Origin: Pelagomonas calceolata
Lineage: Eukaryota
Assembly (NCBI GenBank): GCA_918797485.1
Contig: CAKKNE010000001.1
Location: forward strand, 1,116,001 to 1,180,000
Direction of reading: 5' to 3'
DNA length: 64,000 nt
Shown: positions 1,810 to 54,548 of the stretch, piece by piece
Layout: each line of letters opens with the position of its first letter
Position numbering within the stretch: the first letter of the stretch is position 1
Notes under the pieces: model-generated
Told to the model about the DNA's origin: nothing
Databases searched by the model: none
What the model saw: only the letters and a program-made list of their open reading frames with translations
Translations under genes and position numbers: made by a program

Positions 1810-1831
1810 CTAGTGTCTTACCGGCCGCTAG
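1810..1831 (+). promoter_or_regulatory. CTAG-bounded intergenic motif copy
   Basis: ctagtgtcttaccggccgctag between divergent starts 1647(-) and 1999(+). Confidence 0.6.
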
Positions 1832-1998
1832 CTCTCAGACAGTCGCACGCGTGGTTTTGCTCACGCTCTGCGCGTTAAAAGCCAACAACCTCTTACTTAT
1901 AAGCCACCTTCGCTGCCCGAACACTTCTGTGCAATCGCTTTTGCAAATAATACACTCAACACTGCTTTGCTCTCCCAGCCGCCAGAGCCGCACACATC

Positions 1999-4177
1999 AT
2001 GGCAGACGCACCCCCACCCCCCGTGCTGCGCCGCGAGACCACGAGCGTCGAGGAGGACTGCTGCAACGCGCCGGAGCCGCCGCCGTGCACGCCCATGCAA
2101 TGCCGCGCCGCGCGCGCCAAACTCCGGAAGCACATCTGGGCCTGCGCGCGCGAGCTGCTGAAGATGCCGGATTGCTGGGCCAAGCACCAGCTCGAGAGGC
2201 GGCCGGCGCAGCGCATCCGGAGGCACCGCTACGACCCGGAAACGCAGGAGTGGCGCGTCGACGAGTCGTTGATCAAGATCGCGGCCGAGCCCTTCGACGA
2301 GGGCGCCATGCGCCAGTGCTACCGTGCGAAGAAGCTGAGCTTTGGCTACGTCCAGCGCTTCCACGCCCTCGACTGGAAAAAGGCGCAAAACTTCGTCGTA
2401 AAAAGCTACAAGACCGAGGGCGACGCGGCGCGGGCCTTCGACGACGTCCGGCTGCAGGCCGAGGCGTCGTTGTATGCGGACAAGTAAGGGATGCGGCGCG
2501 GAACTGAACTTCAGCGTGACGTGCTCTCGCGTCGACGCCGTTCAAGCCAGAGCGTGTGAAAAAACACAGGTTTAATGAGCTCGAGCCGCCGAAGCCCATT
2601 CACGTCATCGCCGCGTGCGTTTTGGAGTTAGTGGACGACCCGACGACGCCGGCGCTGTGCGCTGAACGCTTTATTGATGGGGCCGATCGGTTTGGCCGGG
2701 GCTTCGTCAAGCACAACAACAACAGCGGCTTCGTCGACCACGACGAGCACCGGTCGACGCCGCAAGCGTTCAGCAGTGCACAAATCAAATCTTCTGGCGC
2801 TTCTCGACGCGACACCTGAACTGCGCACAGGCGTTCAGCGCCTACTCGTTCTACGCCTCCGAAGGGGACGTGCTGGTCTGCGACGTCCAGGGCGTCGACG
2901 ACCTGTACACGGACCCGCAGCTGCATTCCGTCGACGAGTCGAGGGGCGAAGGTGATTTGGGCCGGCGGGGGATGGCTCTTTTTTTTGCCACGGTCGATGC
3001 CGAGGCGACCAAGGGCTTGTTCGAACCATTGGGCATCCCGCAGTTCGAGCTGTCGCCAGCAGAAAGGCGCCGCGCGGCGACGCAGGAGGACGAGGAGGAG
3101 CCCCAGAAGCGGTCGTCGGTGCGCTTTAGCGGCATCCCCGACAAGTCCACGCAGTCGCGCCACGACGAAGCCCGGCGCCTCTCGATCATGGGGGCGCGGC
3201 GCGTCCGATTGGAGGCGCAGAAGTCCTTGCGGACGCTCTGCAAGTGCGACGAGATCAATGCAGAGCTCGAGGACGTGTCGACCGCGGGCGGCGCCACCGC
3301 CTGCGCCGCCAGAGCGTTACTAGACGCCATCGACGAGAGCGCGTCTTCGGCGACGCCGCGGACGTCATACAAGCTCGAGACGGCCGTCGCCGAGGTCCAC
3401 GCCGCGCTGGCACGCCTGGAATGCGAGGCTCGGTGGACGGCGAACCCCGACGTGTATAGTGCCCTGTTCCACTGCGCCATCGCGGCGAGGCATTCGCCCT
3501 CGGCGGCCTACGCGCTGGCGCGATTTCACCGGGGGTTGGATCATCCCATCCTCCCGCTGCCCGTCGATGCGGCCAAGGAGCTGCGCGACGAGGCGCGCGC
3601 GGGGAGTCTACTTCTGAGCGCTGCTGCCGGTGGACACAATGCGGCCAAGGCGTCGTTCGCCCTCGCGGCCCTCGACGACGCGAGTGCACGAGCCATCGGT
3701 CTCGTCGGCGCGGATATCGCGGTGGCGGAGCGCTTCGTCTGCGAGGTCTGGGAGGACCGCGAGGGTGGCGGCGCCGCGGCCGCCGAGACCTTCGCCGTCG
3801 GTGATGTGGTAGAGGCAAATTATGGGGGCGAGGGGCATTGGTATCCCGGCAGAATCGCGTCGTTCGACTCCGGGAGTTACGAGATCGCGTATGACGACGG
3901 GGAGAGCGAGTCTGGTGTCTCGACGGCCAACGTGCGGCGCGCCTCGGATGTCTCGGAGGACGACGCCACGGCGGCGACGGCGGAGCCCGCGAAGGAGGAC
4001 GACGACAGCGCCCTGCCGATGCCGCTGCACGAGCTCTTCGCAGCCGTCGCCGCGGCCTACGCTTCATCGAACGCGGCGAAGGCGACCACGCTCTACGAGA
4101 AGGCCGCGGCGATCGCGCTCAAGGGCGGGAGCGCGAGCGCGGGCGTCTACCTCTCTAAGGCCGCGGCGCTCGAGTAA
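1999..4177 (+). CDS. Alpha-kinase (eEF2K/MHCK-like) with Sel1-like helices and a Tudor-like domain; exons 1999-2483, 2570-2765, 2831-4177
   Basis: Motifs PFDEGAMRQCY, VVKSY, FVKHNNNSG, TPQAFS, VCDVQGV, YTDPQLHS, GDLGRRGM. Removing introns 2484-2569 (GT-AG) and 2766-2830 (GC-AG) restores one frame. Tudor-like FAVGDVVEANYGGEGHWYPGRI..YEIAYDDGE. Confidence 0.9.
2766..2830 (+). mobile_element. Introner element, family 1 (GC-AG intron)
   Basis: Perfect 8-bp duplication gcgttcag (2766-2773 and 2831-2838); element runs cagtgcacaaatcaaat...tgaactgcgcacag with imperfect terminal inverted repeats. Confidence 0.85.
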
Positions 4178-4204
4178 GACTCTATGTGTGACTCACACAA
4201 CAAC

Positions 4205-4972
4205 TTAGGAGCTCGGCCGCGCCGCCTTCTGCACGAGGCGCTGGCGCGACGGCTCGCCCGGCAACCGTTTGTCCTCGGACGGGAAGAACCCAAAGGCCCG
4301 GTAGGGCAGCACGAGCACGTCGCCGGGCGAGCACCTTATATGAGACCCGTCCTTTGACGCGGAATCCGGCAGCTTCTGGAGCGCCGACGGGTTCCACTTC
4401 TGTAAATGTGAAATCACGGCAGACGTCAGCGCGTGCGACGGCGTGCCCGGTCGTCCCGCAGCATCTAGCAACACGGGATGCTTCTCCGTCGCCGACGCGA
4501 AGCACCAGCCGCAAAGCTCGAACGGCGACCCGTCGTCGCCGCGGAACGGCCTTGATAACCCCACAACTAACAAGTGCTCCTTTTGCAAAGGTTCATCCCG
4601 GTCGAACCGCCGGAGCCACTGCTGGATCGGCACGATGGGCATGACGTCGGGGTCGGCGTAGTAGCCCGCGAAGTGGTGTATCAGTAAAAACCGCGCCGTG
4701 CCGCCTTCCTTGTAATTTTGGGAGACGATCGACTGCTGCTGCGTCGGATCATGTGCTAGCACCACAAAGTCGCCGTCGTCGCCGTCGTTGATCATCGTCC
4801 AATCATAATAATGCGGGTAGGCGTTCTCGACGTTCTCGACGCAGGCGATGAGGCGGCCGGGGAACGCTCTTGCGCTGTGCGCTCGGGCCTTCGGGAGTTT
4901 TAATTGTGTCTTCGGGGCGTCGTCGTCGCTGATGTCTTCCGCAAATTTGTCCCACTTGGCGTAGTCAGTCAT
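4205..4972 (-). CDS. Hypothetical protein with N-terminal DYAKWDKF motif
   Basis: Globular-looking ORF beginning MTDYAKWDKFAEDISDDD (Cdc37-N-like short motif). Confidence 0.65.
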   Translation of the reverse strand: MTDYAKWDKFAEDISDDDAPKTQLKLPKARAHSARAFPGRLIACVENVENAYPHYYDWTMINDGDDGDFVVLAHDPTQQQSIVSQNYKEGGTARFLLIHHFAGYYADPDVMPIVPIQQWLRRFDRDEPLQKEHLLVVGLSRPFRGDDGSPFELCGWCFASATEKHPVLLDAAGRPGTPSHALTSAVISHLQKWNPSALQKLPDSASKDGSHIRCSPGDVLVLPYRAFGFFPSEDKRLPGEPSRQRLVQKAARPSS

Positions 4973-5129
4973 GTTTTGGCTGCGCTTCTGAGTTCTGCCG
5001 GCGCGGCGACGACGTCTAGCTCTGCCGGTCAACGTGCGGCGGCGACGGCGGTCGTGAGGAGAGCAGATGCTTGTACGCGCTGCGGCGGCGTTTTTGCTGG
5101 CTCTTGCTGGTATGCGCGGCAGCAGCGAT

Positions 5130-5191
5130 GGTTGAAATGAGCTTTAAGCGGCTCGGATGCGGTTGAAATGAGCTTTAAGCGGCTCGGATGC
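5130..5191. repeat. Perfect 31-bp tandem duplication
   Basis: ggttgaaatgagctttaagcggctcggatgc twice. Confidence 0.95.
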
Positions 5192-5244
5192 AGCCGTGCG
5201 GCCAAACGCAGCGCTGTGGGCTGAGTTGGGCTTGCTTGCCTTGC

Positions 5245-5266
5245 CTAGTGTCTTACAGGCCGCTAG
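5245..5266 (+). promoter_or_regulatory. CTAG-bounded intergenic motif copy (consensus)
   Basis: ctagtgtcttacaggccgctag between divergent genes 4972(-) and 5536(+). Confidence 0.6.
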
Positions 5267-5535
5267 CTTAATCGCAACCCGACACTTCCATTGTGCCTGT
5301 CCCCGGAGCCGATACAGGAACCCCAGAGGACTCCTACCTCTCGCTGTCCCCGGAGCTCCGTTGCTCTCACAGAGCTGTGACTCGGGCCGAACACACGCCG
5401 TCGGCGCAAATCGGTAAGGGCTGCAAAGCGGCGGAGCCGCCGAGGCGACCCTCCCACCGCGTTGCGAGGGGCTGCAGCGCCCCCATCGTGTGCGCAGCGA
5501 TTACATTCTGATTCTGCGCAGCTGACCCTTCTGCT

Positions 5536-6411
5536 ATGCGCATGCTCTTCGCCCTCCTGTGGGCGCCGGCGGCCGCCCGCGAGCTCTCCATTACTGATTT
5601 CGGTGCGGTGCCCGGTGGCGCCAACAACGCGACCGCCGCGTTTGAGAACGGGAAGGCTCTGTACGACGCGCTGCGCGCCGCGCGCAAGGGCGACGTCGTC
5701 GTCGTGCCGAGCCAACGATTCGTGATGGTGCCCTACGCGCCGCTCTACGGCCTCGAGCACGTCGAGCTGCGCCTCGAAGGCTGCCTCGCCGCCTATGAAC
5801 CGCCGCAGGGCGAGCACGCCAAGGTGTGGCCCTTCTACCTGGGCAACTTCGAGAGCCTAATCACGATCCACCTGTCGTCGCACGTGACAGTTTCGGGCGG
5901 CGGCGCCTTGGACGGCCGCGGCCACAACTGGTGGGTCGCGTTTGCGCGCAACAAGCTCGCTTCAAAACGCCCCATGCTCCTCCAGATCGACGGCTCCACG
6001 GACATTGTCGTGCGCGACATCACGATGCTCGACTCGCCAAGATTCAATCTCTATCTCGGGAGCTATTGCAAGCGGGTCCTCGTCGAGCGCGTCACGATCC
6101 TGGCGGACTGGGCGGCGCAGGCAGCGCTGCAGAAGTCCGTACCGATGTTCCCTTTCAACACCGATGGTATTGATGTGGCCGGCCGGGACGTCACGATCCG
6201 AGACATCGTCGTGTCGAACTACGACGACGTCGTCGCCGTCAAGGCCGCCGATCTGCTCTCCGACAAAACAGGGGCCGTGCCTGGCTGCACGCAGAACGTG
6301 ACCATTTACAACACCACGGTCTACCGCGGCGCCGGCCTGTCCATCGGAAGCGTGCACCCGTCGCCGCTCAAGCCCTGCGTGGGTGTCGGCCGCGGTCAAC
6401 TTCTATATTGA
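5536..6411 (+). CDS. GH28 polygalacturonase-like protein, apparently C-terminally truncated
   Basis: Signal peptide; ITDFGAV, LDGRGHNWW, NTDGIDV, DDVVAVK, GAGLSIGS. No RIK motif or remaining beta-helix follows. Confidence 0.8.
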   Translation: MRMLFALLWAPAAARELSITDFGAVPGGANNATAAFENGKALYDALRAARKGDVVVVPSQRFVMVPYAPLYGLEHVELRLEGCLAAYEPPQGEHAKVWPFYLGNFESLITIHLSSHVTVSGGGALDGRGHNWWVAFARNKLASKRPMLLQIDGSTDIVVRDITMLDSPRFNLYLGSYCKRVLVERVTILADWAAQAALQKSVPMFPFNTDGIDVAGRDVTIRDIVVSNYDDVVAVKAADLLSDKTGAVPGCTQNVTIYNTTVYRGAGLSIGSVHPSPLKPCVGVGRGQLLY

Positions 6412-6515
6412 GGTTTTAGTCCGCGTGCCCGGCGATGAGTCAGTTCGGCAATGAGCCAGTTTGAGGAGATCCCGTCCCCGGGGCGCGGCTTCCAGGGCTC
6501 CCGCGCTTAGGTGGG

Positions 6516-6537
6516 CTAGCGGCCTGTAAGACACTAG
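6516..6537 (-). promoter_or_regulatory. CTAG-bounded intergenic motif copy (reverse, consensus)
   Basis: ctagcggcctgtaagacactag is the exact reverse complement of 5245-5266; about 270 bp upstream of the cold-shock gene. Confidence 0.6.
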
Positions 6538-6807
6538 CAGCAACGACACTAGCAAGCAGCAACAGTGGCAAGCAAGCAAGTTGCAGCAGTGCACAGTCGT
6601 TCGTTGCAAAAGAGAACAGCGCGACAGGACCTACCTGTACCACAGATTCGCCACAGCCAGAACTCGCTGCGTACGGGACCTGTGTTAGTAAAACAGCGAG
6701 GTTGCCCTCGAGAGCCATTGAGGTTGCGGAGCGACGCCACGCCGTTTTGCAGAGCAAGTGGCTGCGTCGACGTCGCATCGATGGCGTGCGTCCACACAGG
6801 CCCCACG

Positions 6808-7155
6808 ATGCGATCACTTCTGGCCGCAACCTGCCTCGGCGCCGCCGCGGCGTTCGCACCCGGTTTTAAGGCGGTAACCCCGCGCGCGCGCGTCGTCGTG
6901 AACATGGAGGGCGAGGCCGACGGCTGCCGGGGCTCGGTCAAGTTCTTCTCGGACAAGGGTTATGGGTTCATCGAGCCCGACGACGGTAGCGAGGACATGT
7001 TCGTGCACTTCAGCGCCATCAACAAGAGCGGCTTCAAGAGCCTGAACGACGGCGAGACGGTCACCTACGACAAGCGCTACGACGCGGACAAGGGCAAGTG
7101 GTTCGCGGCGAACGTGGACGGGGACGGCGACGGCACGCCGCGGGAGCGGTACTAG
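6808..7155 (+). CDS. Cold-shock domain protein, probably plastid-targeted
   Basis: [18 protein letters not shown] leader; [37 protein letters not shown]. Confidence 0.9.
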
Positions 7156-7300
7156 GACGGTCTAGGACCTCGCTCGAGTCTCGACCGACACCGTTAATTC
7201 TCGTGTACGCTTACTGCCTAGAAGTAGGCCGGGTTGAGGCTCCGAATCCGCGAGTGAAGAGTGATACAACTAAACGAATTATAAAAAGCCGCGCGGACTA

Positions 7301-9040
7301 CTATCGCCGCACGTCGACGCCCTGCGCCCGCTTCAGGAAGGGCTCCTCGTAGCGCGGCGACGGCGGCCGGCCGAGCGGCCGGACGGGCACCTCGGCCAGC
7401 AGCCCCTCCAAAAACGCGAAGATGGCCGCGACCTTGTCCGCGATGCGCTTGGCGTCGGGGCCCGCTTGTACTCGCGCCCCAAACTTCGATTCGAACGCGA
7501 CCGGCTCCCACCTAGACATTTCTCGTTCACAAAGCTTCCGCCGCCGCTCCGCGGGGGCGCCTCTTTGAGTACCGAGACTGCGCCACCCGAGATCCGTCTC
7601 CAGCCATTTCACATCATGATAGGCAATCGGACCGGCCTTCTTCGCGAGACCGTCCAGATCGAACCGTCGATCCTCGGGCAAACAAACGCCGGCCGTCTTG
7701 AGCGGTGGCGTACTGACGAGACCCTTCCTTTCTTGCGACGGGTGCGGGTTCGCCGGTAGCGGTCGCGACTTTTCAGGGGTGCGGTACTGCAGCGGAATTT
7801 CTGACGGCGGTTCTCCTAACTCCGGTGGAGGCGGCCGTCGTTCCGCCATGGCCGCCCGGGCTCGGTCCTGGGCCCGTTCCGCCTCCCGGCGCTTCGCCGC
7901 TCTCGCCCTAGCTTCCGCCCGCTCCTCGCGCTCCCGTCTTTCCGCCTCGACGCGGTCGCGCTTCTCGTAGCGACCCCTCTCGCCCGCTTGGGCATCACCT
8001 TTGGCGTAGAACTTCTTCTTCGCCTTGCGTGCTCTTTCTTCCTCGATCTCGGCCGACAGGAAGTCGTCGTCGCCGGCCGGCCAAAAACCGTCCGGCGGTC
8101 TGTTGGCGAACATGGGCGTCGTGTCTAACGATGAGGACGAGTCCAATCGTGACATCTTCGGCGAGACGGCGCTGAAGTCTATCGATGAGGTGGAATCCTG
8201 CCTCGATAACTTGCGGGAAAAAGAATTTTTTCTCTCCAGAGAAAACGAGTCCTGCCGGGGCAGGTTCTTGCCGTCCAAGTTGATCTTGCGGATGGGCCGT
8301 CCGCTATCTAGAGCCGCGGTGCCCGGGCGACTACTGCCGGTGGTCTGGCGCCGGTTCTTCTCGAGGCGCTTGCGGCCAAGACCGCGGTCCGCGCTCTGGG
8401 TCTGCAGAGGCGCCGCTTGACCGGGCGAGCCGTTGCCGTACATCCGATCCAAGCGCTTCTGCTCCGCATCTTTCCGGCGCTGCTCCTCGAAGGAGCCGCG
8501 GCCCCTCGTAAGCGCTTCGTTTAGTTGACGGGCGAGATCGTCCTCTCCCGGATCACCGTTCGCGTCAATCCTACAAACTCTGAGAGGAGCCACATCGATG
8601 GCGCCCGTCTGGCGGTCGAAGCCCACGGCCATGAAGACCTTGCCGTCCTCGAGCTTCGAACCCACGTCTCGCGCTGCAGGTACCTTGCGCGGCGGGCTCT
8701 GGAGCGGCACGCCCGTCGCGCGGCTCTTGGCGAAGTCCGAATAGGTTCGTGGGAGAGGCACGTCTTCATCACGGACGTCCGTGCCCCTTCTGATAGCCTT
8801 CGCGAGGCCCCCGGCGTGCTGCCGGTTGTTGTCGTCGTCCCGCAGCGCCTCCACAAAATTCCCCTTCTCCACGAACTTGCTATGGTCAATACCACGTTCC
8901 GTGCAGAGCTTCTTGAGCTGTTTTATCGAATGACTCTCGAAGTCCTCGCTCTTATTGAGTCGACTGGCTTTCGGCGAGCCGGGCGCCTTCTCGGGCGTGA
9001 CGCGCTGCTGCGGCGGCGAGCGGCGGAAGAAGCGCCGCAT
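7301..9040 (-). CDS. Hypothetical protein with SAP/HeH-like motif and degenerate J-like C-terminus
   Basis: SIKQLKKLCTERGIDHSKFVEKGNFVEAL; low-complexity middle; EMSRWEPVAFESKFG resembles RWHPDKF. Confidence 0.65.
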   Translation of the reverse strand: MRRFFRRSPPQQRVTPEKAPGSPKASRLNKSEDFESHSIKQLKKLCTERGIDHSKFVEKGNFVEALRDDDNNRQHAGGLAKAIRRGTDVRDEDVPLPRTYSDFAKSRATGVPLQSPPRKVPAARDVGSKLEDGKVFMAVGFDRQTGAIDVAPLRVCRIDANGDPGEDDLARQLNEALTRGRGSFEEQRRKDAEQKRLDRMYGNGSPGQAAPLQTQSADRGLGRKRLEKNRRQTTGSSRPGTAALDSGRPIRKINLDGKNLPRQDSFSLERKNSFSRKLSRQDSTSSIDFSAVSPKMSRLDSSSSLDTTPMFANRPPDGFWPAGDDDFLSAEIEEERARKAKKKFYAKGDAQAGERGRYEKRDRVEAERREREERAEARARAAKRREAERAQDRARAAMAERRPPPPELGEPPSEIPLQYRTPEKSRPLPANPHPSQERKGLVSTPPLKTAGVCLPEDRRFDLDGLAKKAGPIAYHDVKWLETDLGWRSLGTQRGAPAERRRKLCEREMSRWEPVAFESKFGARVQAGPDAKRIADKVAAIFAFLEGLLAEVPVRPLGRPPSPRYEEPFLKRAQGVDVRR

Positions 9041-9492
9041 CGCGCTACGGCTGCGCGCGCGGGGGCTGCCGGCGCTGGGGACCAGGTGCCTAGTTCACTT
9101 GATAACGTGCCGCATGCTCGGAACCGCGGCGCGCGCGCCGCGCCCGGGGCGCATCTATGAAATGGCGCCGGCCCATGGCTGCCCGCGGCGCTCCAGGCGG
9201 CGCTACAACTTGGCGCAAAGGCTGTTGTGTGATGCCGCTGCACGGACCCCGCACCGCACGGGCCGGGCCCGCGCGCCTTGCTTGATCCCTCTCCCGCCTT
9301 CGGAGCGGTCGGGCGGAGCACTCCCGGCGCGCGAGGACCCGTCGCACGGCGGCGGCACTGGCCATCTCTCGACGAGCTCCGCGGCGTCGCGGCGTGCGAG
9401 CGCTGCCATTCGCACGCATCGTCCCAAGCGACCGCCTGCGCGCGCAGCGTTACGCGTCGTCGAAGCTGCCCCAACGCGTCGCACCGGAAAGC

Positions 9493-10236
9493 ATGCGGCA
9501 TTATGGGCTGCTCCTCGGCTGCCTCACGCTCACCCATGGAGACGACGCCGCGCCGAAAATACAAGCATCGGTCCACGCCCCAGCTGTGGTGGAGGCGGCG
9601 GAGTTCGTCGTCGAGGAGCTGTCGAAGCTCTCCGATTCAGGCGTCTACGAAACGCTCACGCTCGCGCAGATCGTAAGCGCGCAAACGCAGCGGGGCGTGT
9701 TTCACGAGAACACTTTTTTGACGCTGGAGTTGGCGTCGCCGCACTTCCTGTCGCGCAACGCCACCGAAAGGTTTGAAGTGATTGACATGGTGCGAACCGA
9801 CGACAAGTCGCGATCCTTCGCTATTGATACTTTCCCGGAGATGTCCGAGGAGTCTATCGAAGAGTTTTCGATCCGCAATGTGGAACGACGAAGAGCTTTG
9901 CGGGAACAAGCATTTGAAGAGCTCGAGTTGGACGCCTGCGCCGCCGGTCTCTGCGATGACAGTGACGACGCGGCGTCCTACCTCGAGAGGTCCTCTTCTT
10001 CACTGTTAGAGGAGCTCAAGGACAGCTCGCAATATCCCGATCGGCGGCGACGGGCCCAGGACGCTCTGGAACGGCGTGCGAAGGAGGATAGAATGAGGCA
10101 TTTGGTGGATTTGCATGCTAGGTCGTCCTACGAGCTGGACCAGATCGCGTCGAACGAAAATGATTTCGCGGTGCGGCGGGCGCTGGCGAAGCAGTTGCTG
10201 GACGAGCGGCTCGCGTTGGAAGATAAGAAAGGGTAA
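9493..10236 (+). CDS. Secreted protein, possible cystatin-like fold
   Basis: Signal peptide; PAVVEAAEFVVEEL..LAQIVSAQTQRGVF..TFLTLEL follows the cystatin helix/strand pattern. Confidence 0.55.
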   Translation: MRHYGLLLGCLTLTHGDDAAPKIQASVHAPAVVEAAEFVVEELSKLSDSGVYETLTLAQIVSAQTQRGVFHENTFLTLELASPHFLSRNATERFEVIDMVRTDDKSRSFAIDTFPEMSEESIEEFSIRNVERRRALREQAFEELELDACAAGLCDDSDDAASYLERSSSSLLEELKDSSQYPDRRRRAQDALERRAKEDRMRHLVDLHARSSYELDQIASNENDFAVRRALAKQLLDERLALEDKKG

Positions 10237-10498
10237 ATAAGGGTTGTGTTTTATTTCGTTGTTACGGCGCTAGGACTAGTGGGCGGAGCCCCGCGCGTCG
10301 CCGATTCATCGGCGGGGGGCGCGTGCCGCTTCTTTAATAACAGCATACCGCCTTCTAAGCAAAACCGCCTCGGCAAGAACCCCACAGTGTGCGCCAAAAT
10401 AGCTAGTGGCGGTGTCGCTAGGTAGCTTCCACCGATAATTCGGCAGCAGTTCAGATATCTCGGTGTAGCGCTCCTCAGTTGCATCGTATTACTGAACG

Positions 10499-11226
10499 AT
10501 GCAGCTCGCGAGGTTCTTAGTCATCGGTGCGACCGCGCGCGCGTTCGCGCCGGCGCCGCGCGCGCCGACGCCAGTGAGGTTACATGGTGCCTATGAGGAC
10601 GCCGTCCGCAGCAGCGCGTATAATGAAGCCTTCGCCCAGAAGCATGGACGCAGACGTCGTCGACGGCCGCACGACACAAAATCACACGCAACACACAGGT
10701 CGCCGAGGCCAAGTCCTTCTCCGTCGGGTCCCCCGAGGCCCGGGCCGCCTGGGCCGCCGTCGAGGAGATCGAGGGCGCGGACAACTCCGCGGCCACGAAA
10801 CCAAGTTTAGCGGACGAGTGCGACGCGCTCAACCCGTCGAAGGAGTGCCGCGAGTACGCGAACAGTATGGCGGAGTTGGAGGCGATCCTCGCCTCCTCAA
10901 AAGCGAAGAGCGACTCCATCAAGGTGCAAGTGTCAAAGTTCGCCCAGACGCCGCTGCCGTCGTCGTCTTCCTCATCCCCTGCGGAAACGCCCGGCGCGGC
11001 GGCCGCCGTCGCCGCCGCGGAGAAGGCGTCCTCGGAATTCGGGCCGACGTCCTCGGAAGCCAAGGCCGCCTGGGCCGTCGTCGAGGAGATCAACGATTCA
11101 TTAGATGCGCCGGCGGCGGCGCTCCCGGGCCTCGACCAGGATTGTGTGGTCGCCGCTTTGGAGAAGTGCCGCGAGTTCGACGCGGCGATGGCGTCGCTCG
11201 AAAAGTCGCTCGCGGCGATGAAGTGA
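10499..11226 (+). CDS. CP12-like plastid protein with two CP12-type repeats; exons 10499-10603, 10699-11226
   Basis: ARAFAP leader; GT-AG intron 10604-10698 restores the frame; EARAAWAAVEEI and EAKAAWAVVEEI are each followed by a C..CRE(Y/F) cysteine pair. Confidence 0.8.
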
Positions 11227-11886
11227 GTCTTGCACGTCGCCGTCGTGTGTAAGAGTGGCCTTAGGAGTTTGTCGTTTTTTCGCGGCGCTGCGTCGCTCGC
11301 GTGATGGTGTGCGTGCGAAGTTAGCTCGCGCAGCTCGACGGCGTCGCATCCTAGGAATGGTTTCTTGGTTGCCACTGGCTGTGACAGCCGCTTGTCCCAA
11401 AGCGCAGAAAACCCGAACGAAAAGGCTAATGCACCCTTTCTTCGAGTTTTCCGTCTTCTGGCCACTCTAGAGTTCTCCTGCGACAGCTCCGGCGCTTGTC
11501 TGCGTCCCGTCTGCGTCCCGCGCCGATTTGGTGTGTTTTGGGGCTCGATCAAAGCGACCCTGCCAAAATCACGCTAGGTGGCACGCTCACGGGATTACGG
11601 TACGCAGCAGGCAAGTTCAGTCGGGCACCAAAACGTGCGCGGAACAGCTTGAGCGGTACCGCAGGAGCAAACGAGTAATCGCTCTCCCAAACTCGGCAGG
11701 CCAAACAGCTGCGCTCGCTTGCGGCTGGCCAAGCGGAGTCCCACAGCCCGTTCAAGGCTTGCAAAAGAACGCGCAAGTCGCCGCTAAGTCGCCGCTTCTA
11801 GAGCGCGACCGCTTTTGCTGACGCGCGCGCACGAGCCGCGTCGCCAGCAGCAAAGCGAAGAAAGGATTCCGCCGCCGCGGGGCAAG

Positions 11887-13296
11887 ATGCCGGCGGCCCG
11901 CGTCGCGCGTCCGGCGCCCGTCGCGCTCAAGCCGCCGGGCCTGCAGAGCCCGGCGGGCCTGCAGCGCCCGGCGCCGCGCGCGGCCGCCGCGCCGCGCGCC
12001 GCGCGGCCGCCGCCGCGCGCCGCGCCGCCGGGCCTGGCCAAGCCCGCGCCCGCGGCCAAGCCCGCGCCGCCCAGGCCGCCGCCCAAGGCGCCGAGCCCGC
12101 GGCCCGAGAACCCGGGCCCCAACGGCCCGCGGGCGACCGGCACGGTCAAGACCAAGAAGGAGGGCGTGCACAAGTGGAAGAACAAGGGCGACAAGTACGT
12201 CAGCGGCTTCATCGCTCCCGACGACGGCTCCGAGGACATCTTCTTCATGTCTCGAGGTGATGATGGCCTTCTACTAGAAGTCGGCCAGCGCGTGAGCTAC
12301 GTCCAGGAGACGAACGCCAGGGGCCCCATCGCCCACTACGCCAAGCCGATCGAGGACGACGCCGCGGCGCCCGCGCCGGCCGACTTCCCCGCTTTGTCGA
12401 AGCCGGGGCCCTGGGGCACGGCTACTTCTCCGAAGGCGGCGCCCCCGAAGCCGCCTGTACAACCGGTGAAGAAGCCCAAGCTGCGCGGCACGGTCACGGC
12501 GGTCAGACCGCGCGAGGCGCCGTCGTACGGCTTCGTGCGGCCGGACGCGGGCGGCGACGACGTCTTCGTGGCGTTCGTGGACGTCGAGAGCGCGCCGGGC
12601 AAGTTGGCGGAAGGCGACCGCGTCGACTACGAATTGGTGCCGAACGCGGGCGCCCGCAAGTCGAACCGGACGTCGGGCGACCCGAAGTACGCCGTCAAGT
12701 GCGGCCACGTCGTCGTCCTGCCCAAGGGCGCGCCGAAACTCGGCGCGCCCAAGGCGTCCGCAGGGCCGGCGCACCTGCGCCGCGCGCCGCCGCCTCCCTC
12801 CGTCGGCAAGATTTTGAGGGATAAGGCCACGGGCCAGCTGCTCGCGCCGGCGCAGCAGGAGCGCGCGCAGCTCCAGGCCGCCATGCAGGCGTCGGCGCGC
12901 GAGTACGAGGCCGACCAGCTGCGCCAGGCCCAACGCCTGTCCATCGGCGACCGGCGGCGCCAGGGCTCGCCGCGCGCGCCTTCTGTTCAGGATGTGGACG
13001 AGGACCAGCTCGCCGCCGAGTTGGAATCTTTACGTGAGAAGCACGACCGCGAGCTCGCGAATTTACGGACGTCGCACAACCGCGAGATGGGCCAGCTCCA
13101 GGACCGCCACGCGGCTTTGAGGGACCCCGTCGGCGCTTTACTCTCAACTACGGGTTGCGGCCAGTACCGCCAGAAGTTCGCCGAGCAGGACATTGTGTCA
13201 AAAGCGGACTTCGACATGCTGCGCATGGAGGACCTGTTGGAGGTCGGGCTCGAGCAGCGCGAGGCCGACGCGCTGGCCGCGGCGCTCGGCATTTGA
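11887..13296 (+). CDS. Protein with two cold-shock domains, UIM-like segment, coiled coil and C-terminal SAM-like domain
   Basis: GFIAPDDGSEDIFF and YGFVRPDAGGDDVFV (CSDs); QLQAAMQASARE; GCGQYRQKFAEQDI..DLLEVGL (SAM-like). Confidence 0.8.
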   Translation: MPAARVARPAPVALKPPGLQSPAGLQRPAPRAAAAPRAARPPPRAAPPGLAKPAPAAKPAPPRPPPKAPSPRPENPGPNGPRATGTVKTKKEGVHKWKNKGDKYVSGFIAPDDGSEDIFFMSRGDDGLLLEVGQRVSYVQETNARGPIAHYAKPIEDDAAAPAPADFPALSKPGPWGTATSPKAAPPKPPVQPVKKPKLRGTVTAVRPREAPSYGFVRPDAGGDDVFVAFVDVESAPGKLAEGDRVDYELVPNAGARKSNRTSGDPKYAVKCGHVVVLPKGAPKLGAPKASAGPAHLRRAPPPPSVGKILRDKATGQLLAPAQQERAQLQAAMQASAREYEADQLRQAQRLSIGDRRRQGSPRAPSVQDVDEDQLAAELESLREKHDRELANLRTSHNREMGQLQDRHAALRDPVGALLSTTGCGQYRQKFAEQDIVSKADFDMLRMEDLLEVGLEQREADALAAALGI

Positions 13297-13492
13297 TGGC
13301 ACGCGGCGACTCGGCGCGTCCGCGCGCCGGCTGTTTGGCGGCGGAGGCGTGCGGGCGGGCGCATGCGCACCACTGGCGCGGCGACGGCCGCGTCCTTGCT
13401 AGCGCATGCGCGCTAGAGAATAAATATGAACTGACTTTGGGAGAAAGAGCGTTCGCTCCAGTTAAACATATATACTACAAGCATTTATTTAC

Positions 13493-14443: not shown

Positions 14444-15002
14444 GGCTGGTCTGTGGTGTTGCGGTGCGCTGGCGGGCCGCGGGGCGTCGGGGTTCTTCTG
14501 AGAGCCTCGTGCTGTAGGCGAGCTGCTGCCGAATCCTACGCGCTGGCGCTTGTTTCGGCTCCACAATGAGGCGGGGCAGCCTCCCTCCGTGGGGCACGTT
14601 GCTATCGAGTCCGTCCGAGCCGTTTCGTGGGGCCCAGCCGGATTGGGACCGCGAATCACGTCGATGTTGTCGAGCTCACCGTGCCGCCAACATCGACGGC
14701 CGGCTCCTTTGCCCTGGAGTAGGGGGTAATTAAATCGTCGCGCCAGGGAGCACCCGGCACATCTAACCGCACCAGGGCACCGCTCGTGACCCTCCACTCA
14801 AGTATCGGAGGCCTCCCATGCAAAAACCTGGAGCGAGCTCTCTCTGCAGCGCGGCAGACACAGCGACGTCGTGCGCGCGGCCTCCGCACGCCGGCGACGC
14901 GAAAACCACTCCCAGTGCATCAAGGTTGGCGCCTCCGGCCGCGGGCAGCCTCAGTTTCCCGGGCAGCGCCGCACCAAGGTTGTGGGCGCTGCGCCAGGCA
15001 GT

Positions 15003-18191: not shown

Positions 18192-18213
18192 CTAGTGTGT
18201 TACAGTCCGCTAG
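18192..18213 (+). promoter_or_regulatory. CTAG-bounded intergenic motif copy
   Basis: ctagtgtgttacagtccgctag between divergent genes. Confidence 0.6.
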
Positions 18214-21348: not shown

Positions 21349-21369
21349 CTAGTGTCTTACAGCCGCTAG
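21349..21369 (+). promoter_or_regulatory. CTAG-bounded intergenic motif copy
   Basis: ctagtgtcttacagccgctag between divergent genes. Confidence 0.6.
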
Positions 21370-23743: not shown

Positions 23744-23765
23744 CTAGCGGCATGTAAGACTCTAG
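23744..23765 (-). promoter_or_regulatory. CTAG-bounded intergenic motif copy (reverse)
   Basis: Reverse complement reads ctagagtcttacatgccgctag; between divergent genes. Confidence 0.6.
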
Positions 23766-24487: not shown

Positions 24488-25107
24488 TAGTTCTCTGTTC
24501 TTCTTGTGCGGGCGTTTTTGTGGTCCTAGGCTCTGCGCGCGGCGAGTACTGCGTCGCGGCGACGGCGTGGCGGTGGGGTAGGTGTGTGCTCGTGCGAGCC
24601 TCGCGGCGATGGCGTGTCGCGGCTCACGCGAGATCGACGCGACTCGTCACTAAAACTCCCGGGTCGCGGCGATGGCGTCGAGCCGAGTACACGGCGCCGA
24701 GTTTGGTGCTCGGACTAGGGGCGCGGCCCGCGACGACGCCCACGTTTGGCTGTTGAGGTGACAAAGAGCAGGCAGGGCTGCCTGAGGTCTCGTATAAGGT
24801 CCCCACGAGTCTGAAGAGCCCCCGATACGTCGCGCCGAACCGAGCACGAAGGCTAGTGTCTCTCTTGCATAAGCCCTCGCACGCCGCCTTGCGGGTGTCC
24901 ACCATGCCGCCGCTGTAGGCTCAACGAGGTGCAAACGGCACTGAGCCGCGGCCAGAAGGCTGTGGCTTGCCTTGTCCAAAGTTTGGCGGGGTTTCGCGTA
25001 GGGAGCAAGGAGAGGGAGAGCCAACAGCTCTCCGGGAGTGAAACCGCCGTCACGTGACGCCGGCGCAGCGAGAGTTCGTATAGAGACCGCAGGACATCAA
25101 AGCAGCG

Positions 25108-26316: not shown

Positions 26317-26334
26317 CTAGTTTCTTACAGGTAG
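26317..26334 (+). promoter_or_regulatory. Degenerate CTAG motif copy
   Basis: ctagtttcttacaggtag about 250 bp upstream of 26571. Confidence 0.4.
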
Positions 26335-26570
26335 CAGGTCAGCAATTATTGAGGACGCGCCGCAGTTTGCTGCGTCCCTGGCCTAAGCTACGCTCGGGCG
26401 AGTGTGTTGCGGCAGCCATAGATCCGTTTGAAAGCGCTAGATAGCAGCTGCGCGGCCAAGCGGGCTCCTTAGGACGCGGTTGGGACCAAAACCGCCCTGC
26501 CGCATTTTGATAAACAGCAGCTAAATCGTCACGCCAGCCGCCGAAAAACGCGCCGACGCACGACAATAAA

Positions 26571-32036: not shown

Positions 32037-32056
32037 CTAGTATCTCACACCGCTAG
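32037..32056 (+). promoter_or_regulatory. CTAG-bounded motif variant
   Basis: ctagtatctcacaccgctag between divergent genes. Confidence 0.5.
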
Positions 32057-33400: not shown

Positions 33401-33422
33401 CTAGTGTCTTACAGCCCGCTAG
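33401..33422 (+). promoter_or_regulatory. CTAG-bounded intergenic motif copy
   Basis: ctagtgtcttacagcccgctag between divergent genes. Confidence 0.6.
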
Positions 33423-38762: not shown

Positions 38763-38783
38763 CTAGCGGCCTGTAAGACACTC
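38763..38783 (-). promoter_or_regulatory. CTAG motif copy (reverse) abutting a stop codon
   Basis: Reverse complement reads gagtgtcttacaggccgctag; about 150 bp upstream of 38612(-). Confidence 0.55.
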
Positions 38784-39546
38784 ACATTACTCGACAACGC
38801 CCCGCCTCCTCCTCGGCCGCCATCGCATCATGTAGCTCGACGGCCGGCTCGACGGCCGCCGCTGGCTCGACAGCGCGCGCCGCCCGCGCGACCCTCGCCT
38901 GCCGCTCCCGCCTCTGCCGCTCGCCGGCCTCCCGGAGCGCGGCGCGTCGACGCTCCCGCCCCTGCCGCGCGCGGATCTGCCGGACGATGTCGACGCCCCA
39001 AGACTCCGGCGCGTCGCCGTGCGGCACGCGCGCGACGTCCTCGGGTATGACACGCCAGCGCGTGTAGGTGCCACACCGTACGTGGCACGCCCACGGCGTG
39101 TGCCCGAACGCCTCCGGGCCATCCGTCTGGTAGCGCCACATCGGGTGCGGGATGCGCTGGACGCCGCCGCAGCCCTGGCACTCGTACCGCAGCGCGATCT
39201 GGTTGCCGAGCCAGCACGCGTCGCAGATCGCGACTGAGCCTCCGTCGGGCGCACGGCCGCGGGCGACCAGTACCCTCGGCTCCTGCATGCAAATGCTGCA
39301 CCGGCCGGTCCCGTCGTGGGCCACGACCTCCTCGTCTTCCACCGAGATCCACGCCCGACACCGCGGGCAGCGCGCGACGCCGCCGCCGTGCTCGCAGTTC
39401 ATCCTTAGACATTCGAGGCAAAACCGCGTCGTCGACTCGGTCGTGGTCGCGTTGTCGCAGCACGGCAGCGCGGCGAGCGGCGTCTCCTCGAGGCAGATAG
39501 CGCACGTTCCCTCACCAGCGGCCGACGCGGCGACAGCTTCCGCCAT
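38782..39546 (-). CDS. RING-type zinc-finger protein with C-terminal CaaX-like box
   Basis: CAICLEE..LPCC..FCLECL..CPRCR; further CxxC pairs; ends CRVM-stop. Confidence 0.75.
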   Translation of the reverse strand: MAEAVAASAAGEGTCAICLEETPLAALPCCDNATTTESTTRFCLECLRMNCEHGGGVARCPRCRAWISVEDEEVVAHDGTGRCSICMQEPRVLVARGRAPDGGSVAICDACWLGNQIALRYECQGCGGVQRIPHPMWRYQTDGPEAFGHTPWACHVRCGTYTRWRVIPEDVARVPHGDAPESWGVDIVRQIRARQGRERRRAALREAGERQRRERQARVARAARAVEPAAAVEPAVELHDAMAAEEEAGRCRVM

Positions 39547-41473: not shown

Positions 41474-42025
41474 TGTGTGTATACCTGCGCGGGGCGTTGC
41501 CGGCTGAGCTTTGGCGCCCGATGCGAGCGTGCGGAGGTCGATCCATATACGGCCGAGGGCATGCGCAGACTTTCTGTCCACAGTGGGGCAGCCGGGCAGC
41601 CGAAAATCGGTGCCGCACGCACGGCCGACGCGCGCGGGTGACGCACGGCTAGCAGCACTATCAACGATGCCGCGCCGTACCTTCTGGCAGCGCGTGATGC
41701 GGTGTGGACGCGGTGCTGGACTCGGATCTGCGAGACTGTCTGTTAATAAAATGAGAGCCCGTGCCCTAGTAGGCTACGGATGCGCGATTTTACGCGTCCT
41801 GTGGACTGCAGCACATCTCGGTACGGTTCGCGGACGGGTTGGCAGGCCTATTAAGATGCCCACTCGCGCTTTTCCAGCGCGAGGCCTCGCAACAGAACAA
41901 CCAAGATCGCCGCCGCGCGCACACGCCCGCGTCCGCAGATACGCGCCGCTGGCGCATCGCAGCAGCTGCTGCGCGCCTCCTTGAGGCTGCCCCGTTGACT
42001 TGTTGCATCCGCAGGCACTCACACA

Positions 42026-42931
42026 ATGTACAAGCTCCTGCTCGTCCTCGCTTCGGCCCAGGCGCTCAAGCGCCCGCAGCGCGCGCTGGCCGTGCGCGGT
42101 GGTGAGGTCGACCCCATCACGATTGGCAAGGGCATCGTCGCGGCGTCGGGCATCTACGGCGCGTTCGATCCCGCGGCAAACGCCGGTCTGTACGGGATCA
42201 AGGCGGAGGACAAGGGCAACGCCATGATGCGTTTGATGGGCTGGTCGCAGATCCTCTTCGCGGCCGCGCTCAACCTCGACATGGACAGCGTGGTTCGGCG
42301 TCGCTCTGGGTGCCTTCTTCCTGCGTCGTCTCGGCGCCGTCGCGGCGATGGCGTCACGCGCTGCACGCCGTCGCCGCGATTGCGTCGACGGCGTCGCGGC
42401 GATGGCGTCATGTCGTATGCCATATCACCATTCTATCGCATAGGCGTCCACGGCCAAATGGCTTACCACTCGATCGCGTTCCTCCTCGTCGCGCAGCCGT
42501 CCTTCGAGAAGTTCCAGTGCCCGAAGGCGCCCGACGCCGTCTGGATGGCGATCTGTGCGGCTGTTGGCTACAAGACCCTCGACGGGTCTCTCAACAAATG
42601 GGTCCCGACGGCCATCTGGCTCGCGAACGGCGCGCAGTTCTTCCTCGCTCCCCAGAGTGCGATCGACCTCTACGAGATGAAGGGCACGAACCGGTTGTGC
42701 AAGGCGATGACGAGCATGATGGGCGGACAGATGCTTTGCGTGGGGACGTACCTCGCGGCGCTCGTCATGGACAAGAGCCAGTCGGAGGCGTTCGCCTACG
42801 CCATGGCCGTCAATGGTTTGGCCGCGGTCAAGTTCGCTCTGCAGGACGCTGATGACCTCAAGGCCCCGAAGAGCGGCCCGCTCGCGTGGGCCGCCCTGTC
42901 GGCGGGCCTCGCCTACAAGGCGCTCAACTAG
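42026..42931 (+). CDS. RGG-leader multipass membrane protein, paralog 2; in-frame intron 42288-42443
   Basis: Removing the 156-nt GC-AG intron gives 249 aa, the same length as paralog 3. Confidence 0.85.
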   Translation: MYKLLLVLASAQALKRPQRALAVRGGEVDPITIGKGIVAASGIYGAFDPAANAGLYGIKAEDKGNAMMRLMGWSQILFAAALNLDMDSVVRRRSGCLLPASSRRRRGDGVTRCTPSPRLRRRRRGDGVMSYAISPFYRIGVHGQMAYHSIAFLLVAQPSFEKFQCPKAPDAVWMAICAAVGYKTLDGSLNKWVPTAIWLANGAQFFLAPQSAIDLYEMKGTNRLCKAMTSMMGGQMLCVGTYLAALVMDKSQSEAFAYAMAVNGLAAVKFALQDADDLKAPKSGPLAWAALSAGLAYKALN

Positions 42932-43267
42932 ACTCGTACTAGAAAGTGACTAGATTCACACAAGTAGATAGACTTCGCGGGAGGGGAGGTTTCTAGCGCC
43001 TCTCTCACAAGCTAACTCCCAAAAACAGAACCAAGATCGCCGCCGCGCTGCACGCGCCCCGCGTCCGCCAACGCCGCGTGCTGATGCGCGCGGCACCATC
43101 GAGGCTCTGCAAAAATGCCGGACGCCCGCGCGCGCGCGCGTCGGCCGTGCGTGCTGCGCATCGTTCCGGCTGCCCCACTGTCTGGATGCAAAGAATGTGG
43201 TCGCGGAGGCGAGGCGAGAGCCTGCACGCCATCGCCGCGACGCGACGTGACCCGCAGGTCAATAATC

Positions 43268-44017
43268 ATGTACAAACTCCTTCTTGTTCTCGCTTCGGCC
43301 CAGGCGCTCAAGCGCCCGCAGCGCGCGCTGGCCGTGCGTGGCGGCGAGATCGACCCCATCACGGTCGGCAAGGGCGTCGTGCTCGCCTCGGGTCTCTATG
43401 GCGCGTTCGACCCGAAGGGGAATCTCGACAAGTACGGTATTAAGGCCGAGGCCAAGGGCCAGGCGGCGGGGCGCTGCACGGCCTGGATGCAGATCATGTT
43501 CGCGGCCGCGCTCAACCTCGACCCGGAGTCCGTGCACGCGCAAATGATGTACCATATGCTCGCGGTGATGGTCATCACAGAACCTATGTCTGAGGTTTTC
43601 GGGGCCCCGAAGGCTCCGAGCGTCATCTGGATGGCTATTCTGGGCGCGGTCGGGTACAAGACCCTCGACGGGTCCCTCAACAAATGGGTCGCCACGGCCA
43701 TCTTCCTCGCAAACGGTGCGCAGGCCTTCCTCGCGCCTGATTCCATCTGCGACATGTATGGAATTAAGGGCGCCAACAAGATTGTCAAGGCGATGTTCAG
43801 TCTCATGGGCGGCCAGATGCTCTGCACCGGCACCTACCTCGGGGCGCTTCTCATGGACAAGAGCCAGTCGGAGGCGTTCGCCTACGCCATGGCCGTCAAC
43901 GGCGCCGCCGCCGCGAAATACGCCCTCACGGACGCGGACGACCTCAACGCCCCGAAGACCGGTGCGCTCGCCTGGGCCGCTATCTCGGCGGGCCTCGCCT
44001 ACAAGGCGCTCAACTAG
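43268..44017 (+). CDS. RGG-leader multipass membrane protein, paralog 3
   Basis: 249 aa with no coding intron; same leader; ends AGLAYKALN. Confidence 0.88.
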   Translation: MYKLLLVLASAQALKRPQRALAVRGGEIDPITVGKGVVLASGLYGAFDPKGNLDKYGIKAEAKGQAAGRCTAWMQIMFAAALNLDPESVHAQMMYHMLAVMVITEPMSEVFGAPKAPSVIWMAILGAVGYKTLDGSLNKWVATAIFLANGAQAFLAPDSICDMYGIKGANKIVKAMFSLMGGQMLCTGTYLGALLMDKSQSEAFAYAMAVNGAAAAKYALTDADDLNAPKTGALAWAAISAGLAYKALN

Positions 44018-49734: not shown

Positions 49735-49790
49735 CTAACGTATAGTAAGACTCTAGCAAGTGATTTGCTAGTGTCTTACAGGGACGCTAG
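49735..49790. promoter_or_regulatory. Inverted pair of CTAG motif copies
   Basis: Reverse copy 49735-49756 and forward copy 49768-49790; gtaagactctagcaa-N5-ttgctagtgtcttac is a 14/15 inverted repeat in a divergent promoter. Confidence 0.65.
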
Positions 49791-52489: not shown

Positions 52490-54424
52490 CTGCTGGAGTA
52501 CCTCCGGCACGACGCGAGCGAGGCCGACGTCGCAGTCGCGTTCGCGGGCGGCGGCGCCGCGGCGCTGCTCCGCCGTGTCGAGGACTGCGCGGCGGCGGCG
52601 GCGCGCAGGGTGCCGGAGGCGGCGGCGTCCCTGGCGTCGGCGGTCGCGTGCGTGCGCGCGCTGGTCGAGCGCGGCGACGGCCTCGAGCGCTTCGCGCGCG
52701 ACCCGGCGCTCGCCGCGCGGCTCTCGCGGGCGCTGGACGCGCCGCGCGCCGCCACGCGCGCCGCGGTGCTCGAGCTCCTCGCCGTCGTCGCGGCGCACTC
52801 GCCCGCAGGCCACGCGGCCGTCGTCGCGGCGCTCCACTATTTCCGCGCGGCGACGGGCGAGGGCGCGGCCTTCGAGGGCCTCGTCCAGGCCGTCGGCGAC
52901 GCGACGGCGGCGACGGCGCTCCGCCGCGACGTGCTGCTCTTCGTCAACACGCTCGTGAACGCCGCGCCCGACCTCGCGGACCGCGCGGAGCTGCGGGCGC
53001 AGCTGCACAGCGCCGGCCTGGGCCGCGCCCTGGCGGGCGTCGCCGCGGCCGTGGGCGGCGGCGGCGCCGACGCCGACGCGGCCGCGGCGGAGGAGCTCGA
53101 GGCGCAGCTCCGGGTCTACGAGGCCGTGGCCGCCGACGACGCCCAGCGGGTCGCCGCGGCCGCGGGCGCCGAGGGCGAGGCGCTGCGCCTCGACGACGAG
53201 GCGGCGCTCCTCAAGGCCTGGACCGCGCGCGCGACGCGACGCGGCGCCGGCAAAGAGGCGCGCGCGCTTGCCCGCTACCTCGCGTGCCTGCCCCTGGACG
53301 ACGCGCGCGGTCGCGACACGCTCGCGGCGATCGTACGAGATGTGCATCGACGTGCGCTGGGCGCGCGGGACGACTTCGACGCGGGCCTCGACGACATCCG
53401 GCGCGTCGTCGACTGGCGCCGCGCGCTCGACGAGCGGGCGCGCTCGCTCGCCGACGCGACGGCCGCGCTCGACCGCGCGCGCGCGCGCGCCGCGGGCGCG
53501 GCGCCGCCCGCCGCCGCGCCGCCGCCCACCGCGCCGCCGCCCACCGCGCCGCCGCCCGCCGCGCCGCCTCCCACCGGCGACGTGGCGCGTTTCGAGCGCA
53601 TGCTGCGCGCTGGCGTCCCGCGACCGGCGGTCGAGCACCGCATGCGGCTCGAGGGCGTCGATCCGGCTCGGCTCAGCGGCGCGCCCGAACCCGCGCCCGC
53701 GCCCGCGCCCGCGCCCACGCCCGCGCCCGCGGCGGGGCCGGCGCTCCGCGCCCTCTTCTGGACCGTCGTGCCCCCCGAGCGCGCGACGGAGACGGTCTGG
53801 CGCAACCTCGACGCGGCGTCGGTGCGCGTCGACGCGAGGGCGCTGGCCGCGGCGTTCGCGCGCGCGCCGGCGGGCGGCGCGCGCGCGCGCGCCGAGGGTG
53901 GCGGCGGGGCGCCGGCCGCGCCGCTCCGGCTGCTCGACGCCAAGGCGGAGCAGCGCGCGGCGATCGCGCTCGCGCGCGTGCGGCTTGGCGACGCCGCGAT
54001 CGTCGAGGCCGTGCTCGCCTGCGACGCGGACGCGCTGGCGCCGGCGCGGCTCGAGCTCGTGCTGCGCGCGGCGCCGAGCGACGCCGAGGCCGCCGCGGCG
54101 CTCGCCGTGGCGCCGGGCGACGCACCGCGGCTCTCGCGCGCGTCGCAGTTTCACCGTGCGCTCGCGGCGCGCGTGCCCGACGCGGCGCGGCGCCTCGAGG
54201 GCCTATCCTTCGCGCAGCGCGTCGAGCAGTCTACGCGGAACCTCAACGACGACTTCCGGGTCCTCGCGCGCGCGTGCGAGCAGATCGGCCGGAGCGAGCG
54301 CCTCGCGCGGCTCCTGGAGCGCGTGCTAGCCCTGGGCAACGCGTTGAATGCGGGCTCGGCGCGGGGCGGCGCGCGGGGCTTCCTCGTGACCGACCTTCCT
54401 CGCGCACCCGACTACACTCGTTGA
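52490..54424 (+). pseudogene. Formin-like fragment (FH3, Pro-rich, incomplete FH2)
   Basis: LLFVNTLVN..DLADRAELRAQL; RFERMLRAGVP; LRALFWT; VLALGNALNAGSARGGARGF, then ends abruptly; no ATG at the 5' end. Confidence 0.7.
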
Positions 54425-54435
54425 TTTATGCACAG
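54405..54435 (+). mobile_element. Orphan 3' half of a family-1 introner
   Basis: cacccgactacactcgttgatttatgcacag resembles the 3' end of the 41130 element (cacccgacacactggttgatttgcgcgcag). Confidence 0.65.
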
Positions 54436-54527
54436 AGGACCGACGTGTTTCAGTAGACCCATGTTTGAAATATGAGGAGCTAGGAGAGGAGGTAGGCCTG
54501 TGAAGCAAGCGCGAAAAACGCGGCTGG

Positions 54528-54548
54528 CTAGTGTCTTACACGTCCTAG
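54528..54548 (+). promoter_or_regulatory. CTAG motif copy in a non-divergent context
   Basis: ctagtgtcttacacgtcctag. Confidence 0.5.

Follow-up and report, generated by a model that had tools for sequence, protein, structure and literature searches.

Why should one short sequence recur between functionally unrelated genes of a compact eukaryotic genome? The question is raised by a stretch of 64,000 nucleotides from Pelagomonas calceolata (contig CAKKNE010000001.1 of assembly GCA_918797485.1, positions 1,116,001 to 1,180,000 of the forward strand), referred to here as the window and numbered from its first letter. A sequence-only reading of this stretch had described a motif of 20–23 bases framed by CTAG tetramers and had proposed that it marks promoters, especially divergent ones. 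In the present analysis the motif is a two-box word of about 28 bases, longer than the 22-mer originally described, in which a first box, (GCTTG)CTAGTGTCTTACAG, is followed by a spacer of 1–4 bases and a second box, GCTAG(C). The word probably binds a putative sequence-specific general promoter factor, through which RNA polymerase II would be made to initiate on one side of the word or on both. This reading is suggested by a word that is long and discrete, stands beside the transcript starts of unrelated genes in either orientation, and consists of two boxes joined by a flexible spacer.

The window has a GC content of 64%, contains no N and is densely packed with eukaryotic genes bearing few, short introns; a GC content of 63% is given for Pelagomonas calceolata in PMC9481584. 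The word is over-represented in the window. With up to three mismatches the 22-mer yields seven matches (1810, 5245, 18192 and 33401 on the plus strand; 6516, 23744 and 38763 on the minus strand) versus none in 100 dinucleotide shuffles, and a search tolerant of insertions and deletions adds plus-strand copies at 21349, 26317, 32037, 49768 and 54528. The 14-base core CTAGTGTCTTACAG, allowed up to two mismatches, occurs 12 times in the window, whereas 50 third-order Markov simulations average 0.04 and never exceed 1. One core match, on the minus strand at 15586, falls in a coding frame without a second box and is probably due to chance. The frame CTAGTG-N4-16-GCTAG gives 10 matches versus 0.21 expected. 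When 8-mers are ranked by their preference for intergenic over coding DNA, those of the two-box word come out on top (9 versus 0), and the CTAG tetramer as such is depleted from coding sequence (50 versus 165 expected) and enriched in non-coding sequence (65 versus 44). All twelve copies listed by the earlier reading were thus recovered, together with the paired reverse copy at 49735-49756, which is real but degenerate. The weak traces that it had added fared unequally, since the one at 55339 retains both boxes as a frame variant, and those at 24853 and 46391 keep merely 8–9 bases. The copies and their variants are as follows; the RNA ends given with them are those of the transcript data described below.

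1810..1831, plus strand: full copy with one mismatch in a head-to-head region; contig ends at 1775 (minus strand) and at 1842 and 1848 (plus strand).
5245..5266, plus strand: exact copy between head-to-head genes for an unknown protein (minus) and a GH28 protein (plus), 1.5 bases off the midpoint of the two predicted start codons.
6516..6537, minus strand: exact copy between tandem plus-strand genes, GH28 followed by a cold-shock-domain gene; 108 bases past a stop.
6534-6552: partial second copy beside the 6516 copy.
10403..10421, plus strand: frame variant CTAGTG-GCGGTGTC-GCTAG upstream of a mapped start; raw-read 5′ ends at 10458 and 10462.
18192..18213, plus strand: copy with two mismatches, head-to-head; minus-strand raw-read 5′ ends at 18153 and 18155, predicted ATG at 18096.
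21349..21369, plus strand: copy with a 2-base spacer (one shorter), head-to-head; minus-strand contig ends at 21305/21306, plus-strand starts at 21384/21391.
23744..23765, minus strand: copy with two mismatches between head-to-head genes for an unknown protein (minus) and a clathrin adaptor small chain (plus); minus-strand contig end at 23730.
24853..24866, plus strand: weak half site, CTAGTGTCT only, which could be a chance occurrence; raw-read plus-strand 5′ ends at 24900 (19 molecules).
26317..26338, plus strand: copy whose first box is good and whose second is absent, between tandem plus-strand genes; plus-strand contig starts at 26353 and 26360.
32037..32056, plus strand: degenerate copy with three substitutions and a shorter spacer, head-to-head; raw-read 5′ ends at 32076 and 32080 (17 and 15 molecules).
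33401..33422, plus strand: copy with one mismatch between head-to-head genes for an unknown protein (minus) and a pseudouridine synthase (plus); minus-strand contig ends at 33384 and 33395.
38763..38784, minus strand: copy with TGAG for CTAG between tandem minus-strand genes, directly adjoining the upstream frame at its end.
46391: trace in which GCTAGTGT is kept.
49735..49756, minus strand: degenerate copy with three core mismatches and GTTAGC for GCTAGC, back to back with the next.
49768..49790, plus strand: copy with a 4-base spacer (one longer) between head-to-head genes for an unknown protein (minus) and DnaJ (plus).
54528..54548, plus strand: copy with a degenerate second box between tail-to-tail genes, the sole exception to the promoter position.
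55339..55358, plus strand: frame variant with both boxes and another middle, CTAGTG-AAAAG-GCCCGCTAG.

At the 38763 copy the RNA reads show low expression, and no transcript start could be mapped. At 38782-38787 the stop codon of the upstream frame (38785-39690, minus strand) and the word of the next gene seem to touch or overlap.

The limits of the word were defined in public metagenome contigs, which were scanned for the exact core and returned at least 121 stretches; the counts in this and the following paragraph hold among the matches listed. Across the 94 copies aligned, position frequencies have dropped to background by 5 bases ahead of the word and 2 bases past it. The five bases preceding the core are G, C, T, T and G at frequencies of 0.49–0.74, and the core is followed by CC-GCTAG-C(T). 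The spacer measures 3 bases in 68 cases, 2 in 21, 1 in 3 and 4 in 2, which together make up 94 of the 116 unique core matches with enough flank. Since base frequencies reach background just outside, the word is a discrete unit of about 28 bases with a flexible spacer and not the tip of a longer repeat. The window copies agree with this, as the 60 bases on each side of them have nothing in common, in line with the earlier remark on unshared flanks. Right beyond the GCTAG end the GC content dips and runs of T cluster, with 17 in the first 20 bases versus 1–9 in later bins (40 loci), as would suit an open promoter gap.

In 99 of 124 metagenome matches the core is followed by the second box; as a control, this is so for 0 of 47 matches in viral contigs and 3 of 120 matches in prokaryote genomes. 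Genes beside the metagenome copies mostly point away from them: the closest gene that could be called does so in 38 of 46 cases on one side and in 40 of 53 on the opposite side, with 51 and 44 sides uncallable. Both orientations of the word face genes about equally, with 6 and 3 tandem cases; the median distance from word to ATG is 152 and 184 bases on the two sides, and 4 of 97 copies overlap a predicted coding sequence. Nearly all copies are single, the paired ones being 49735/49768 in the window and L044, L046 and L082 in the metagenomes. Among the 121 metagenome loci only L083 matches a window site, namely 32037 (80.5% identity over 528 bases); it carries a canonical copy at the place of the window copy, which differs from it by three substitutions and a 2-base deletion. 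No word-specific footprint emerges from this alignment because the entire intergenic stretch is conserved (88%). Seawater and marine metatranscriptome runs contain a fraction of 0.08–0.14 of the window words, from which no habitat is drawn. The full 28-base word was also found in three contigs of bacterial metagenome-assembled genomes (L181, L202 and L272). Each of these genomes has one exact copy, its near matches being no commoner than those of a control pattern and adding no further loci, and the contigs may be mis-binned or chimeric eukaryotic pieces.

The position of the word relative to genes was assessed on a map of 42 genes that is self-built and no formal annotation, derived from frame-specific GC content at third codon positions (GC3), Pfam and RNA contigs. 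All twelve loci fall within the 12.5 kb mapped as non-coding (chance about 3e-9), bearing out their description as intergenic. The word is present in 8 of 14 head-to-head intergenic regions, which agrees with the eight head-to-head loci counted before, and in 3 of 12 tandem and 1 of 15 tail-to-tail regions, so that 11 of 26 promoter-bearing regions contain it versus 1 of 15 tail-to-tail ones. It lies upstream of about 19 of the 42 mapped genes (~45%), a density based on one 64-kb window. In head-to-head regions it sits close to the midpoint between both start codons (Irwin-Hall p=2.8e-4); in the tandem regions the 26317 and 38763 copies are oriented toward the downstream gene and the 6516 copy away from it. 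The proposed link with promoters is upheld by these data, together with the transcript 5′ ends adjoining the word and the genes pointing away from it. The emphasis on divergent promoters holds only in part: head-to-head regions make up 47% of intergenic bases and hold 28 of 43 pooled words (p=0.014), and the window by itself is not significant. The head-to-head preference is modest and exceeds only weakly what two promoters per region would give, a per-promoter chance of ~0.25–0.35 being enough to explain the counts. As the earlier reading had held, the neighbouring genes are functionally unrelated, their Pfam families including alpha-kinase, GH28, cold-shock domain, clathrin adaptor, pseudouridine synthase, glycosyltransferase and DnaJ. 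No Rfam families or tRNAs were found in the window.

Transcript starts were taken from stranded poly(A) RNA runs of the same organism, as reads and spliced contigs, over positions 1-20000 and 20001-40000. Library reads correspond to the strand complementary to the RNA; 'end' denotes the 5′ side of the RNA, as verified on the gene at 32080-32665. Distances, in bases, were measured with the word in consensus orientation.

Beyond the GCTAG end, 1810: +11 and +17 (contigs).
Beyond the GCTAG end, 21349: +15 and +22 (contigs).
Beyond the GCTAG end, 23744: +14 (contig).
Beyond the GCTAG end, 26317: +15 and +22 (contigs).
Beyond the GCTAG end, 32037: +20 and +24 (raw reads).
Beyond the CTAGTG end, 1810: 35 (contig).
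Beyond the CTAGTG end, 18192: 37 and 39 (raw reads).
Beyond the CTAGTG end, 21349: 43 and 44 (contigs).
Beyond the CTAGTG end, 33401: 6–17 (contigs).

The distances are narrow, 11–24 bases on the GCTAG side (five loci) and 35–44 bases on the CTAGTG side (three loci), in a small sample that consists mostly of contig ends. At 1810 and 21349, where both starts were mapped, they are 67 and 78 bases apart with the untranscribed word between them, and the word lies outside the transcripts at all seven mapped full-site loci. At the half site 24853, raw-read starts fall 26 bases past the point where its end would lie. The start-site sequences often end in CA, as expected for polymerase II.

Several observations weigh against a general promoter role. 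Six of the 14 head-to-head regions are without the word, and the 54528 copy sits between tail-to-tail genes. Starts are mapped at seven full-site loci and one half site only, and the CTAGTG-side start of 33401, 6–17 bases off, falls outside the 35–44 range. Most starts are the ends of assembled contigs, which may stop short of the true 5′ end; raw-read pile-ups occur only at 18153/18155, 32076/32080 and 24900, and pile-ups may mark alignment breaks (as at 14085 and 20817). The decayed 32037 copy precedes a gene that is among the most covered in the stretch (depth 217), which implies that a perfect word is not needed there, or that the word is not essential. Finally, the ends of plus-strand RNA fragments at 6499 and 6506 suggest that the word at the 6516 locus is transcribed, or else that alignments break at a variant at 6483-6506.

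Among the rival explanations the least unlikely, though improbable, is that the word does not mark a promoter as such but a boundary in chromatin, a terminator of the roadblock type or an origin of replication. A compact genome would place any such site between genes, and long two-box sites with a variable spacer are typical of multi-finger insulator proteins. Tandem copies lie near the end of the upstream gene (38763 abuts the end of a frame and 6516 follows shortly upon a stop), as a boundary or terminator would, and the copy at 54528, with genes ending toward it from both sides, would suit a boundary. Against such a role, the word occupies one in 15 tail-to-tail regions, and with a degenerate copy, although this is a weak test, these regions being very short. 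The flanking genes mostly point away from the word, whose narrow distance to transcript starts is as expected of a promoter element. The word could nevertheless act as a boundary, terminator or origin and as a promoter element at once.

It is improbable that the copies are relics of the ends of a transposon family that inserted preferentially into open promoter DNA and are now neutral or secondarily used. The ends of the GCTAG...CTAGC frame read alike on both strands, the first box starts with TAGTG and so would fit the terminal pattern of hAT elements, and a few copies come in pairs. However, neither the 12 window copies nor the 94 metagenome copies listed share any further sequence inside the word or outside it, common bases extending no more than about 5 past one side and 2 past the opposite one. 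Inspection by eye revealed no target duplication around the window copies, as stated before, or around the L044 pair. Some 100 copies among the matches listed, almost all of them solitary, have the same sharp borders and high identity, unlike neutral relics of different ages, and their position is fixed relative to transcript starts. The absence of common flanks and duplications and the sharp borders of single copies make such relics unlikely, and the earlier suggestion of a domesticated transposon end is not borne out.

It is very improbable that the word acts at the RNA level, whether as a 5′ or spliced leader or as a signal for translation: contigs of other loci do share 21–22 bases with the word at 5244, 6532 and 6539, and plus-strand RNA seems to cover the word at 6516, yet transcripts begin outside the word at the mapped loci, genes are faced by the word in either orientation, and joints of 21–22 bases are what any common 22-mer would give. 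Trans-splicing was considered separately and rejected, as the joints are explained by other-locus contigs that share the word, and the loose-end sequences map nowhere in the window.

A directional core promoter element, such as the TATA box, the initiator (Inr), the downstream promoter element (DPE) or the oomycete initiator and flanking promoter region (INR/FPR), was likewise rejected, as both orientations of the word face genes and the orientation is not fixed. The first box stands ~25–35 bases upstream of the GCTAG-side starts, the distance on the other side differs, and the word overlaps no start at the seven loci.

If the word is read by a general promoter factor, as seems probable, a protein with two DNA-reading modules would bind it. 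The tolerance of a spacer of 1–4 bases would suit a multi-zinc-finger or tandem helix-turn-helix protein. Once bound, the protein would hold nucleosomes off the gap and position the initiation machinery, and where genes are head to head one site could serve both of them, the starts lying so close together. A more specific proposal, possible though hardly likely, is that a single lineage-specific DNA-binding protein reads the word, takes over the positioning role of the TATA box at close to half of the genes and fires polymerase II both ways from starts 67–78 bases apart; it might be a domesticated transposase of the BED/hAT kind, like DREF in flies. Were this true, a free-living eukaryote would possess a compact, nearly operator-like promoter code.

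Text searches of the literature for the word and its 12-mers returned nothing relevant, by the titles and abstracts of the matches, and the records listed for promoters of Pelagomonas calceolata, pelagophytes and Aureococcus contain no relevant description. The terms 'motif' and 'promoter' have no occurrence in PMC9481584 and PMC13284251, supplements aside. If the word governs the choice of start at many promoters, this regulatory code is directly testable and the word can be used to fish out the protein that binds it. It might also serve gene-start prediction, the annotation of compact GC-rich genomes and the design of short bidirectional promoters for transformation. As a highly specific lineage tag it picked about 100 contigs from public metagenomes, among the matches listed.

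Two further words occur in the neighbourhood of the first. The sequence GGGAGCCCTGGAAG lies 1–25 bases beyond the GCTAG end and always has the same orientation as the main word; it was seen at one of the 12 window loci (6489-6502, minus strand) and at 5 of 97 metagenome copies among the matches listed (L010, L026, L064, L082 and L118). L010 and L082 match the window over 62–95 bases at the 6516 locus, from which it follows that a small promoter sub-family shares a longer module. The sequence GGGCAGCC or its complement occurs 16 times in non-coding versus 6 times in coding DNA, often no more than ~50 bases from the main word or directly ahead of start codons (for example at 14943, 18262, 21318, 21419, 23880, 31997, 36228, 41586 and 41985), and may be a second word of promoters or 5′ untranslated regions.

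Other observations in the window concern the RNA data and gene structure. At 18909-18951, in the region of a methyltransferase gene, thousands of reads map to both strands, with fixed differences at 18933 and 18935 and, on each side, loose ends numbering more than 1000 reads; this suggests an element common to other loci that is either highly repeated or very strongly expressed. In an intron of a minus-strand gene, the segment 34829-35027 reaches a contig depth of ~12,800 at 34985 with many loose ends, resembles L003 and L025 and has no Rfam match; it might represent a repeat or a small RNA carried by the intron. After the allowed shift of the joint, 3 of 9 introns checked (2765-2831, 27503-27599 and 28991-29062) have GC..AG instead of GT..AG borders, and CACAG is a frequent acceptor ending. 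All four RNA runs contain a joint of 24569 to 29017 with an identical set of 16 letters between its sides; the probable source is another locus whose transcript has short stretches in common with each of the two places. Two adjacent plus-strand frames of 310 codons each (41999-42928 and 43085-44014) have the same weak DUF4267 match at the same positions and are likely a tandem duplicate.

The promoter-factor reading can be set beside known systems. The DNA replication-related element (DRE) read by DREF, Motif 1 read by M1BP and the sites of BEAF-32, all from Drosophila housekeeping promoters, are like the present word in being discrete, in standing near the starts of many unrelated genes, and in being common at head-to-head promoters in either orientation. 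They measure 8–12 bases, in contrast to ~28 bases in two boxes with a variable spacer, and show no likeness in sequence. The site of ZNF143/Staf in vertebrate promoters is likewise long (~18–20 bases), stands just upstream of starts, often at bidirectional promoters, and has a multi-zinc-finger reader in ZNF143. Its sequence differs, and the share of genes with the putative site in the window (~45%, 19 of 42) is higher than is known for ZNF143. Yeast Reb1, Abf1 and Rap1 sites lie in the nucleosome-free promoter gap, serve both directions and can block read-through from upstream; they are shorter than the two-box word and further from starts. With TATA, Inr and oomycete INR/FPR elements the word has in common a narrow distance to the start, its first box being at a TATA-like position on the GCTAG side. 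However, such core elements have a fixed direction, with Inr and FPR overlapping the start, whereas the two-box word serves both orientations and is untranscribed at the seven mapped loci. A bipartite insulator site of the CTCF type shares the length, the two modules and the variable spacing, but CTCF is an animal protein, and the word is tied to transcript starts and not to domain borders as far as is visible here. Set against these systems, the word is unusual in its length, in the share of promoters that carry it and in its tight placement between very close divergent starts.

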